The translations under genes were made by a program, and so were the position numbers. Below, piece by piece: positions 44,540 through 48,438 of a stretch of 64,000 bases of DNA. Within the stretch, counting starts at the first letter, position 1. Each line of letters begins with the position of its first letter. The stretch is from Rhodospirillales bacterium (GTDB lineage Bacteria > Pseudomonadota > Alphaproteobacteria > Bin95): positions 1,248,894-1,312,893 of the forward strand of contig JAYQLI010000035.1 in NCBI GenBank assembly GCA_038143065.1. Reading direction: 5' to 3'. The notes under the pieces are model-generated. The model searched no databases and was not told the origin of the DNA. It worked only from the letters and a program-made list of their open reading frames with translations.

Positions 44540-46827
44540 ATGACCCGTCCACTTGAAGGTATCACCATTCTTGATCTGTCTACTGGTAATGCCGGAGCAT
44601 TCGCCACAATGCTCCTATCTGATTGCGGTGCGAGAGTTTTACGAGCTGTTGGTAAGGCCAATCCCCTTTTTAGGGATGGCGGGTTTGTAATTTGGGATCG
44701 TGGCAAAGAAGCAATTGATCTAGACATTGATGCTCCTGGTGCCAAAGAAAAGATCGAAGCGTTGCTTGCTGAGGTAGATGTTCTAATCGAAGACTTTGCC
44801 CCTTCATCTCAACGCCAATTATTAGTGGATCGGGAGAGGATAAAGGCTCTAAACCCACGCATAGTGGCCTGTGCCATTACTGCTTACGGTCGTCATGGTC
44901 CATTAAAGGACGACTTGCCTATAGATGATCTTATTCTGGCTCGCTCTGGCGTACTGGGAGGGATGCCTGGGTTTCGAGAAGCGCCAATCCACACCGTACA
45001 CCCTCTCCCAAGTGTTGGAGCTGCTATTTTTGCATGTATTGGTGTTGCAGCCAGTCTACTTGCACGCGAAGAAACTGGCCGTGGGAGAATGGTTGAGACC
45101 TCATTACTGGCGGGCGCACTACTTTATCACCCCAAGGTTGAAGGCGAAGGCATAGCAAAGCATGTATTCCAAACCCACCCATCAGGATCTGCACCTTTCT
45201 ACAGTGTTTACGAGTGCCAAGATGGAAATTACATCCAACTCGGCTGTGTCCATGAAGGCTTCATAGCTCGCTGTGCCCACCTCATGGGGATTTCCGATTA
45301 CGTGAAGGAGCCCCGCTTCCTTCAGGGTCGAGGCGGAGCTACTCCTGAAGATGAGCAGGAAATGCGAGACTGCCTGACAGAAATAATGAAAACTCGAAAA
45401 GCAGATGAGTGGGCTGCTGCCCTGGAGGAGGCTGATGTTCCCTTTGCTCCGGCGAGACACGCGGAAGAAGGACTAGAGGACCCACAGGTCATTCACAACG
45501 GCATGGTAAAAACGCTTGAGGATCCTGACCAAGGCTCCGTAGTTCAGATGGGGACTCCAATTATATTTACCAAGACCGCTGTATCCCCCAAGGACCAAGG
45601 GCAGCCCATATTTCAGAAGCTCCTAGTGCAAAACGAACCACAAATAGTGTGATTACATCCGAGACTGTAGATCCCCCTCCCCTTCAAGGAGTTCGCATTT
45701 TGGAGATCACAAATCTAATAGCCGGACCAACTTGCGGCAGATTATTAGCTGACCTTGGGGCTGATGTGATAAAGTTAGAGCCTCCTGGGGGCGATATATC
45801 TAGACCAATAGGGCGAACATATTTCTATAACGTTAACTTTAACAAACGTTCTATTTGCTTTGATGCTTCAAAACCTGGAGCAAAGGCAGCAATCCAAAAA
45901 ATTGCAGCTACGTGTGATGCCGTGCTCGCAAATCTCAGACCAGGCGCCACCGAGCGCATGGGCTTAGGTCCAAGCGTAAACCCAAATTTAATAGAAATGC
46001 ATATTACAGGCTACGGATGGACAGGCCCATATTCAAAACGACCTGGCATCGATCCTTTGGCTCAGGCACTGATGGGGCTTCAACGCGCTCAAGGTGGCCC
46101 CGATAACCCACCGTCTTTCCCTGCTCAACTTGCTCCCACTGACTATACTACTGGAGCTCTTGGTGCCTTTGGCATGGTCACAGCGCTTTATCACTTAAAG
46201 CGAACTGGGGAACCACAGAGGATTGAAAGCAATCTTCTGAACGGGGGCGTTGTGCTATCATCCGCATGGTTTAGTCGCTATCGAGACAAACCTAAAAGAC
46301 CTTTAGCCGATCAACAACAATTTGGTCTTAATGCATATCATCGTCTCTACAAGACAAGTGATGGATGGATATATACTGCGGCTGATACTGAAGATCAGCG
46401 CATTGCATTGAAAAAATTCCTGGATCTTGTGAATTCAGATGATCAAGGGTTACAGCACCCAGCACGTTCACCATTTGCTGAGGCTGCTTCAGAACAATTT
46501 AAAACTATGACCACAAATTTAGCTCTACAAAGTCTCAAAAAAGCGGGCATACCTGCCGCTGAAGCACAGCCAGGTGACAGCCAATATTTTCTTCAAGACC
46601 AAAATTCTCATGACAATAATTTTGTGTGTGAACGCATCCACCCCAAAGTCGGCAAGATGCAAACTGCTTGGAATTATATACAGTTCAGTCAGACGGGTCT
46701 TACGGCTGGTAAACCCACTCCTCTGCTTGGAGAGCAAACAGCAGAAGTGCTTGCAGAGGCTGGTTTGGATCAAAGTGATATCAAAAATCTATTCATGTCG
46801 GGTGCCGCAATAGCAGAGGAGCCTTGA
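44540..46827 (+). CDS. Double-domain CaiB/BaiF (class III) CoA-transferase; frameshift near 45590
   Basis: Two tandem PL.G..ILD/E modules. The second ORF's frame is open back to about 45590, so the halves are fused. Confidence 0.82.
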
Positions 46828-46879
46828 TGAGACCTATTTTCAATGCAAAGCTCTGCTATCAGTATTTAAGGAGTCCAGT

Positions 46880-47497
46880 GTGGCAGATCCGTTAACTCTT
46901 GAAATCTTCACGGACTATGTTTGACCGTGGTGTTATCTCAGCACCGGGCGTGTTGAAAAACTCAAAGAGACCTTTGACATTCAAGTGAAGTGGGTACATT
47001 TCCCCCTCCACCCTGAAACACCGATGGAAGGCCGTTCATTAAAAGACCTTTTTGCCGGGCGCGATTACGATCCAGAGAAAATGTACCAGCAAATGAAAGT
47101 ACGTATGGATCAGGAGGGCCTCCCCTACGGCAAGCGCACTCACACCTACAATAGCAGGCTAGCTCAAGAATTGGGCGTTTGGGCTGACACACAAGTTGAC
47201 GGCGAAAAACTGCATGACCTCCTCTATCGAGCTTATTTCGTACATTCAAAAAATATTGGTGACATCAACGTACTAATAGATCTTGTTGCGGAGGCTGGCC
47301 TAGACGTTGGAGATGCAAAAAAAGCTCTTGAAGCTCGCAGCTTTAAAGAAGTTGTTGATGCTGACTGGAATAAATCAAAACAATATGGGGTAACTGGTGT
47401 ACCTACATTTGTAGCGAGCGGCTACGGAGTTGTTGGCGCTCAACCTTATGAAACCTTAGAAGCATTGTTAGATAAAGTAGGTGCGGTAAGACGATAG
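46880..47497 (+). CDS. DsbA/FrnE-family thiol-disulfide oxidoreductase, selenoprotein (UPWC; TGA at 46922-46924 = Sec15)
   Basis: RBS AAGGAG (46868-46873), then GTG start reading ...IFTDYV-TGA-PWCYLSTGR..., in frame with track ORF 46985-47497 (FPLHPETP, GVTGVPTF, GAQP). Confidence 0.88.
46938..46956 (+). promoter_or_regulatory. Putative bacterial SECIS element
   Basis: Stem TCAGCAC/GTGTTGA (one G-U pair) with loop CGGGC. The loop begins 20 nt after the UGA and has G at its second position. Confidence 0.6.
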
Positions 47498-47592
47498 GTA
47501 GAGAGCGGTTAGTTAAAACCGCGATCGCTGAGGATATCAAATTCGTCAAATTGCAACCAACCCATCAATGACCCCTGGGGCCATTTTCGTTC

Positions 47593-48438
47593 TCAAGAAT
47601 CTGCCTTCTTGAGGCCGTCATGTCTCAAACAGAAGTCCCTCAGCTGCTCGCAGCAGACCGCCGGAAATAGCAATTGGACCATGTGATAGTTCGTCGGGAG
47701 TTTCCGCATCGAGAAATCGGAGAGGCTGTTTCGCAAAAGTCTTTCTTGAGATTTTGACGTGATCTGACCCTCTCCCGGGTAGAGACCCAAGACCGGGACT
47801 TTTACGTCTTTCAGAATATCCGTAACGTTGGCTTGGTTGACAATGCCTGACATCCGGACCTGGAGGTCTGGATCGCCTTTGGAGAATTCGTTGACATACC
47901 ATTCATACAGACCGGGATTTTCATCAGCTGGCAAGCGAGTGATTTTGGTGGTTTCCGAAACCCACTTACGGATTCCAAGTTTTTCCATAGCCTCGATCCG
48001 AGAAGCATAGCCAAGAGCATAGCGCTCCTTCATTTCTTCTTCGATGAATACCGGTGTCGATACCAACGTTAGCGTCTTGATCAGTGATGGGTGCTGCGCA
48101 GCCAGAAGCAGTCCCAAGATACCACCCATTGATTCGCCACAGAAATGGACCTTATAAACCCCTAATGCACCGATGACTTTGAGCAAATCTTCGATAAGGC
48201 TTTCAACGCTGAGGTCGACAGCTGATCCATCAGCGAAAATGGACTTTCCCAACCCTCGCATGTCAGGTCGTACGATCCGGAAATCCCTGCTCAGATAAGG
48301 CACCCACTGATACCAAAACTGGGCGTTTCGTCCATTACCGTGCAACAAAATTAAAACCGGGCGGCGTTCCCAAGGGTCAGTGTGATCGTCGACCTCATAA
48401 TTGAGGGGGGTCCCATCATTTGCTTGGATCATAGGCAT
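47593..48438 (-). CDS. Alpha/beta hydrolase
   Basis: LLHGNGRN, PDMRGLGKS, GESMGG nucleophile elbow and C-terminal His (YHMV). Confidence 0.88.
   Translation of the reverse strand: MPMIQANDGTPLNYEVDDHTDPWERRPVLILLHGNGRNAQFWYQWVPYLSRDFRIVRPDMRGLGKSIFADGSAVDLSVESLIEDLLKVIGALGVYKVHFCGESMGGILGLLLAAQHPSLIKTLTLVSTPVFIEEEMKERYALGYASRIEAMEKLGIRKWVSETTKITRLPADENPGLYEWYVNEFSKGDPDLQVRMSGIVNQANVTDILKDVKVPVLGLYPGEGQITSKSQERLLRNSLSDFSMRKLPTNYHMVQLLFPAVCCEQLRDFCLRHDGLKKADS

Follow-up and report, generated by a model that had tools for sequence, protein, structure and literature searches.

A predicted FrnE/DsbA-like selenoprotein gene with an in-frame UGA codon and an intragenic SECIS-like hairpin in a Rhodospirillales bacterium

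An in-frame TGA in an oxidoreductase gene

The window, by which is meant the whole 64,000-nucleotide stretch of DNA under analysis, includes at 46985-47497 an open reading frame of 170 amino acids. This is the product of standard gene calling, and the redox motif of its protein family is absent from it. The motif lies upstream in the same frame. An AAGGAG sequence at 46868-46873, read directly in the window, is followed by a 6-nt spacer and then by a GTG at 46880, with which an ATG aligns in relatives. Fourteen sense codons lead from this GTG to a TGA at 46922-46924, immediately followed by codons for P-W-C-Y. If the TGA is translated as selenocysteine (Sec, U), the product is 205 residues long and ends at a TAG (47495-47497), with the TGA as the sole interruption of the frame. 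A first-pass annotation of this DNA had described a ribosome-binding site, a GTG start, a TGA, a continuous frame and a downstream hairpin here, and all of them lie in the window where it placed them. The features are as follows.

46868-46873, plus strand: Shine-Dalgarno-like AAGGAG, 6 nt ahead of the GTG start, by direct reading.
46880-47497, plus strand: predicted FrnE/DsbA-like selenoprotein coding sequence, 205 residues, GTG start, TAG stop, from translation with TGA as U, the Pfam DSBA match and the match to FrnE 5cnw.
46922-46924, plus strand: predicted UGA selenocysteine codon (U15), first residue of the U-P-W-C redox motif, TGC or TGT in Cys forms.
46931-46933, plus strand: codon of C18, the putative resolving cysteine, the only Cys in the protein and an invariant column of the protein alignment A1.
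46932-46961, plus strand: predicted SECIS element inside the coding sequence, with lower stem 46932-46934 paired with 46959-46961, upper stem 46938-46944 paired with 46950-46956, and loop CGGGC at 46945-46949.
46985-47497, plus strand: the 170-aa ORF of standard gene calling with its GTG start at 46985, an artefact cut short at its N-terminus, with the active site missing.
47393-47407, plus strand: T-G-V-P-T, residues 172-176, invariant columns in alignment A1.

The last of these is presumably the cis-proline loop that faces the active site, as in thioredoxin folds in general.

Contigs of two DNA and two RNA-library runs, from four studies, span 46866-47700, those from RNA libraries being no proof of transcription. 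Among the differences between these contigs and the window that were listed (40 of 61), none is at 46922-46924. Compared with the contigs of all four runs, the window does have one base more at 47583-47585, within or next to a T-run. This position is intergenic, just past the end of a hydrolase gene, and the difference is of the homopolymer-length type, as in selA (see below). A separate observation concerns a 151-nt contig of run X5, which comes from a different organism. It aligns only over the TGA and the hairpin (46922-46963) and is otherwise unlike the window, so that nucleotide conservation in this short segment is far above that in the rest of the gene.

The neighbouring gene on the upstream side terminates in a TGA of its own (46825-46827). 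TGA therefore serves this organism as an ordinary stop codon, which leaves no place for an alternative genetic code. A tandem pair of CoA-transferase family III genes occupies 44540-46827, with a 4-nt overlap, and ends 52 nt ahead of the candidate selenoprotein gene. A Pfam scan of 38 flanking ORFs from 20 loci found that neighbours differ between taxa. Among those 20 loci, a CoA-transferase III gene is upstream only in this genome (L021) and in one other of the same genus (L026). The neighbours at other loci include TauD, pirin, enoyl-CoA hydratase and GMC oxidoreductase, and many of the longest flanking frames have no assigned family. Because the flanking genes differ between taxa, they give no operon clue to function.

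The protein and the conservation of its TGA codon

The readthrough product had been proposed to be a 205-residue DsbA/FrnE oxidoreductase, and it proves to hold a complete DSBA domain. Pfam DSBA (PF01323) spans residues 6-197 and profile positions 1-190 of 191, with an E-value of 2.3e-33. The best solved relative is FrnE (5cnw, 5cp1), which matches across residues 4-202 with an E-value of 1.4e-28, and its CPWC is aligned with UPWC. The U15 column is occupied by C, the first Cys of CPWC, in the eight Cys forms of alignment A1. Thus, the idea that the TGA sits exactly at the first Cys of the family motif holds for the Cys homologues and for the solved FrnE. We take COG2761 to be the FrnE group. 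The 205-residue product should be cytoplasmic, since its DSBA domain starts at residue 6, too near the N-terminus for a signal peptide to fit. No C-terminal CxxxxC is present in it, and C18 is its single Cys. Recycling of the enzyme must therefore use another route than such a tail.

The TGA recurs in relatives, as the first-pass reading of the gene would have it. A set of 61 genomes, made up of the window's own and 60 relatives, has the orthologue in 10 genomes at 66-100% identity: its own, eight of the nine remaining genomes of the genus and one from a different family. In all ten loci a single TGA occurs within the match, at the same codon. The best 80 loci of a scan of species genomes have TGA in 79 cases and TGC in one, which makes TGA the codon at this position in 89 of 90 related loci. 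An even sample of the class (401 genomes) includes 12 genomes with an orthologue at E <= 1e-40, all 12 with the TGA. A metagenome scan was seeded with Cys forms and yielded 80 loci, two of which were left out because they have no N-terminus. The 78 motif-holding loci comprise 59 with TGA, 11 with TGC and eight with TGT. According to their records, the sampled orthologues belong to Alpha-, Beta- and Gammaproteobacteria, Methylomirabilota and a Candidatus Cybelea MAG. One species-genome locus (L081:456) is peculiar in that its intact gene is preceded, at a distance of about 1.1 kb, by a second, truncated N-terminal copy. This copy keeps the TGA and part of the hairpin and diverges after codon +9.

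What if the TGA is a true stop? The gene would then be decaying or split, and its product would be only the 170-aa ORF from GTG 46985, or nothing at all. Standard ORF calling yields exactly this ORF, and 45 of the best 120 database proteins are likewise short forms. However, a pseudogene would not keep the TGA, an intact 14-codon segment upstream of it, a start codon, a ribosome-binding site and frozen synonymous sites (see below) in 155 orthologues from several phyla, and the short product would be without the whole active site. We regard a true stop as extremely improbable.

The database forms themselves are instructive. The 120 best matches comprise 69 proteins with CPWC, 45 without the motif and six with R, W or G in place of Sec. 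Of the 45 short forms, 41 begin at [M/V]-R-[I/V/T]-E-K, which corresponds to residues 23-27 of the full protein (for example P0018, P0030 and P0058). In the common forms with S-T-V-R, this false start is a GUG codon within the apical loop of the SECIS element. In other words, the recoding signal itself supplies the mis-start. Two database proteins, P0003 and P0026, start at the point that matches the ORF at 46985-47497. Standard annotation does then truncate the gene, as had been anticipated. NCBIfam has no model for the protein (36 bits for the best match, against a cut-off of 190), and for this reason automatic pipelines keep truncating the family.

The six exceptional proteins among the best 120 (P0008, P0009, P0088 and three others) have R in three cases, W in two and G in one, each one base from TGA. 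These could be real point mutants, or they could come from gene callers that use other tables. They are also what one would point to in support of a reading in which near-cognate suppression or another genetic code lets UGA be translated as Trp, Cys or Gly. Against this, the TGA that terminates the gene immediately upstream marks a normal stop, and the W and G forms may simply stem from those other tables. In addition, the genome has the full Sec machinery (selA, selB, selD and tRNA-Sec), and a conserved hairpin whose G-containing loop lies 20 nt beyond the UGA is the bacterial Sec signal and no feature of codon reassignment. Such a readthrough has next to nothing in its favour as a probability, and selenocysteine insertion is preferred.

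A FastTree of 175 orthologues (155 Sec and 20 Cys forms) was built from rows that continue for 170 codons or more beyond the motif, with the SECIS columns removed and four duplicate loci dropped. Three Sec/Cys switches suffice to explain it. Perhaps Sec, and not Cys, is ancestral and dominant in the sampled FrnE clade across several phyla, in which case few selenoproteins of aerobic bacteria would be as widespread; the balance tips only slightly towards this view. If it is true, the SECIS element would be so rigid as to impose the peptide S-T-[G/V]-R-[I/V/T]-E, and public sets would hold a widespread selenoprotein mostly as an ORF truncated at the GUG of the SECIS loop.

The hairpin downstream of the TGA

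The loop CGGGC (46945-46949) begins 20 nt after the UGA and is closed by an upper stem of 7 bp. Its conservation was followed in a gapless alignment (A2) of 78 distinct 63-nt stretches, in which column n is window position 46906+n. The hairpin drawn in the first-pass annotation pairs columns 32-38 with 44-50, and 98.7% of its cells are paired over the 78 sequences. Registers slid along the upper stem are only 23-43% paired. All 78 sequences are paired at 36-46 (window 46942/46952), 57 of them with U-A and 21 with C-G. Pair 37-45 changes from A-U to U-A in two sequences, and pair 34-48 does so in one and is broken in five. Pair 35-47 changes from G-U to G-C in three sequences. Double changes thus occur in three of the seven pairs of the upper stem, and none of 500 shuffles reaches the observed covariation score.

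The RNAalifold consensus of the 78 sequences is the same hairpin extended by a 3-bp lower stem, columns 26-28 with 53-55. In this lower stem, pair 27-54 is U-A in 38 sequences, C-G in 29, U-G in four and unpaired in seven. The model with both stems has 97.8% of its cells paired and four pairs with double changes, and again none of 500 shuffles reaches its score. The apical loops among orthologues are CGGGC, CGUGC, GGUGC or GGUCC.

How many independent events lie behind this covariation? A quick tree with 97 rows calls for five or more changes of pair 36-46 and seven of pair 27-54. A test of independent pairs finds three on well-supported branches, with a sign-test p of 0.25, and with so few pairs the sign test is powerless. 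The covariation therefore rests on few independent events. Compensatory pairing, which is expected of a bacterial SECIS element, is present, with a small count after correction for the tree.

Taken alone, the sequence folds no more stably than expected by chance, with z = -1.13 and an equally good fold in 29 of 200 shuffles. Consequently, the support for the feature beyond chance is comparative, coming from conservation of the TGA, covariation and frozen synonymous sites. In the window, two overlapping hairpins are near equal in energy, at -7.8 and -7.0 kcal/mol. The competitor pairs 46928-46934 with 46940-46946. It belongs to the minimum-energy fold of the window sequence and is also paired in 98.7% of cells over the 78 sequences, so it might be asked whether this is the functional RNA. 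However, it has no double-sided change and scores equal to shuffles, and it is broken in exactly the sequences in which the other stem has compensatory flips. In 62 of the 78 sequences it is less stable than the SECIS model. The conservation of the competitor is explained by the invariant codons for W-C-Y-L-S-T. It was rejected for want of covariation, and it is very unlikely to be the functional structure. The hairpin that shows compensatory changes is the one originally drawn, not the minimum-energy alternative, and the 3-bp lower stem extends it. Among Rfam families, none covers the hairpin and only a chance match to OxyS came up (E 9.5).

Codon usage provides an independent line of evidence. 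In 93 distinct Sec forms, Leu +5 is CTC in 92 of 93, Thr +7 is ACC in 88 of 91, Val +8 is GTG in 58 of 59 and Arg +9 is CGT in 91 of 93. The 59 Sec loci of the metagenome scan behave in the same way, with CTC for Leu +5 and CGT for Arg +9 in 58 loci each. By comparison, the 19 Cys loci of that scan use six codons at Leu +5 and five at Arg +9. Elsewhere in the gene, codon entropy is 1.0-2.1 bits for Leu, Thr, Val and Pro, and 1.4-2.1 bits for Leu alone. Synonymous sites are therefore frozen at codons +5 to +9 in the Sec forms. The stem follows the same division: all seven pairs are kept in 56 of the Sec loci and six of seven in the other three, whereas the 19 Cys loci keep two to five of seven. 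Since synonymous sites are frozen in Sec forms and free in Cys forms, the hairpin travels with the TGA and is no by-product of the protein sequence. Columns 36 and 46 (window 46942 and 46952) offer a ready pair for disrupt-and-restore experiments.

Selenocysteine decoding and relation to known systems

A selenoprotein gene needs a host able to decode it, and the first-pass annotation had predicted selA, selB, selD and tRNA-Sec elsewhere in the genome. All four were found, over curated cut-offs and on one contig (C35) of 2.86 Mb, with the reservation that selA has a frameshifted stretch in this assembly.

C35 594751-596061, minus strand: selA, 496 bits.
C35 592829-594709, minus strand: selB, adjacent to selA, 435 bits.
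C35 517788-518672, minus strand: selD, 280 bits.
C35 2209072-2209164, plus strand: tRNA-Sec, 71.5 bits, called SeC with anticodon tca by ARAGORN.

Among the ten TGA-bearing genomes of the set of 61, eight have selA over the cut-off; it was not found in the other two, G004 and G047, which are 87% and 77% complete.

The frameshift deserves attention. Compared with the 99%-identical copy in genome G008, selA (L001:1441-2871, minus strand) lacks one base in one A-run and has one extra base in another, 84 nt away. This indel pair puts 28 codons out of frame, and a TAA arises some 30 codons short of the usual end. If the lesion is real, synthesis of Sec-tRNA could be impaired in this strain. The gene in the window would then be a selenoprotein gene by descent, whose UGA mostly terminates translation. 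Yet both indels are in A-homopolymers and the frame is restored after 84 nt, which is the typical pattern of an assembly error, and the similar one-base difference at the T-run of 47583-47585 from the contigs of all four runs is of a piece with this. Nor is there any decay in the selenoprotein gene or in two CxxU candidates of the same genome (see below). The indel pair is therefore a probable assembly error, and impaired decoding in this strain is very unlikely.

The two candidates just mentioned are AhpD/CMD-like genes. One (L228; C35:2363168-2363644, minus strand) has an in-frame TGA in C-F-Y-U, followed by a hairpin with a GGUC loop; the other (L230; C35:262302-262655, minus strand) has an in-frame TGA in C-L-Y-U. 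Both are likely further selenoproteins of this genome. In the same genome, nothing passed the cut-off of the formate dehydrogenase alpha model, nor did any of its matches have an internal stop, and the Rdx/SelW model found nothing.

Taken as a whole, the gene at 46880-47497 (plus strand) is very probably a real selenoprotein gene that encodes a cytoplasmic DsbA oxidoreductase of the FrnE branch, with predicted Sec at U15. The way it would work can be outlined. During translation, the UGA at 46922-46924 would not be read as a stop. Instead, the mRNA hairpin at 46932-46961 would recruit SelB with Sec-tRNA(Sec), and selenocysteine would be inserted at the UGA. We infer both the binding of SelB and the actual incorporation of selenium from the paradigm of E. 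coli fdhF. In the finished enzyme, U15 would attack substrate disulfides and C18 would resolve the selenenylsulfide, so that the enzyme may reduce or isomerise disulfides in the cytoplasm. This last activity is proposed by analogy with FrnE biochemistry (PMC8945050).

The consequences are modest. The correct gene call is 46880-47497 with Sec at codon 15, and the genome should be recorded as selenium-using. The practical value lies in this correction of the annotation, and nothing else in the knowledge of selenoproteins is altered by it.

How does the element compare with a classic bacterial signal? The SECIS element of E. coli fdhF is an intragenic hairpin that closely follows the UGA and has a G or GU in its small apical loop. 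The hairpin described here is alike in being intragenic, in lying 3' of the UGA and in its G/GU loop (the loop of L073 is GGUCC). It differs in that its upper stem begins 13 nt after the UGA and no bulged U is evident.

The closest characterised protein is FrnE of Deinococcus radiodurans (5cnw, 5cp1), described in PMC8945050 as a cytoplasmic disulfide reductase/isomerase of the DsbA family. The likeness extends over the alignable residues 4-202, includes CPWC facing UPWC, and is shared in the absence of room for a signal peptide. The CP(W/F)C motif in a DsbA-like domain predicted to be cytoplasmic marks FrnE proteins, which that text predicts to be cytoplasmic (PMC8945050), and the protein in the window has this motif through the alignment of UPWC with the CPWC of 5cnw. 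There are two differences. Sec replaces the first Cys here, and the C-terminal CxxxxC tail that regenerates the D. radiodurans enzyme is missing. According to the same paper, the CxxxxC is present in many FrnE members, though not in all, and other means of recycling have been proposed for homologues without the tail (PMC8945050).

The nearest selenoprotein precedent is older. In the Sargasso Sea data, Zhang, Fomenko and Gladyshev (2005) described a selenoprotein family named 'DsbA-like protein', which comprises nine sequences assigned to COG2761, with UxxC, widespread Cys homologues and a predicted SECIS element (PMC1088965). The statement that DsbA-like UxxC selenoproteins were already known was thus accurate. 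A 2006 survey by the same authors counted four such DsbA-like genes in sequenced bacteria (PMC1794560). In a 2026 review, the family is 'DsbA-like protein form 1', with PF01323 and UxxC, and nearly all such proteins are called bioinformatic predictions (PMC13188914). The gene in the window has the features of form 1: a DSBA domain over the whole protein, a TGA at the first Cys of CxxC, a stem-loop with G in its loop, and a genome with selA, selB, selD and tRNA-Sec. The comparison with the 2005 family, whose first examples were of marine origin, was made by its description of family, motif and stem-loop, and at that level no difference was found. The two share the Pfam domain, a UxxC with Sec first, widespread Cys homologues, and a predicted stem-loop directly downstream of the UGA whose small apical loop contains a G. 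It is likely that the gene belongs to the same orthologous group as the Sargasso Sea entries. Since all testable defining features of the DsbA-like family are present, the gene is a member of a selenoprotein family already known since 2005.
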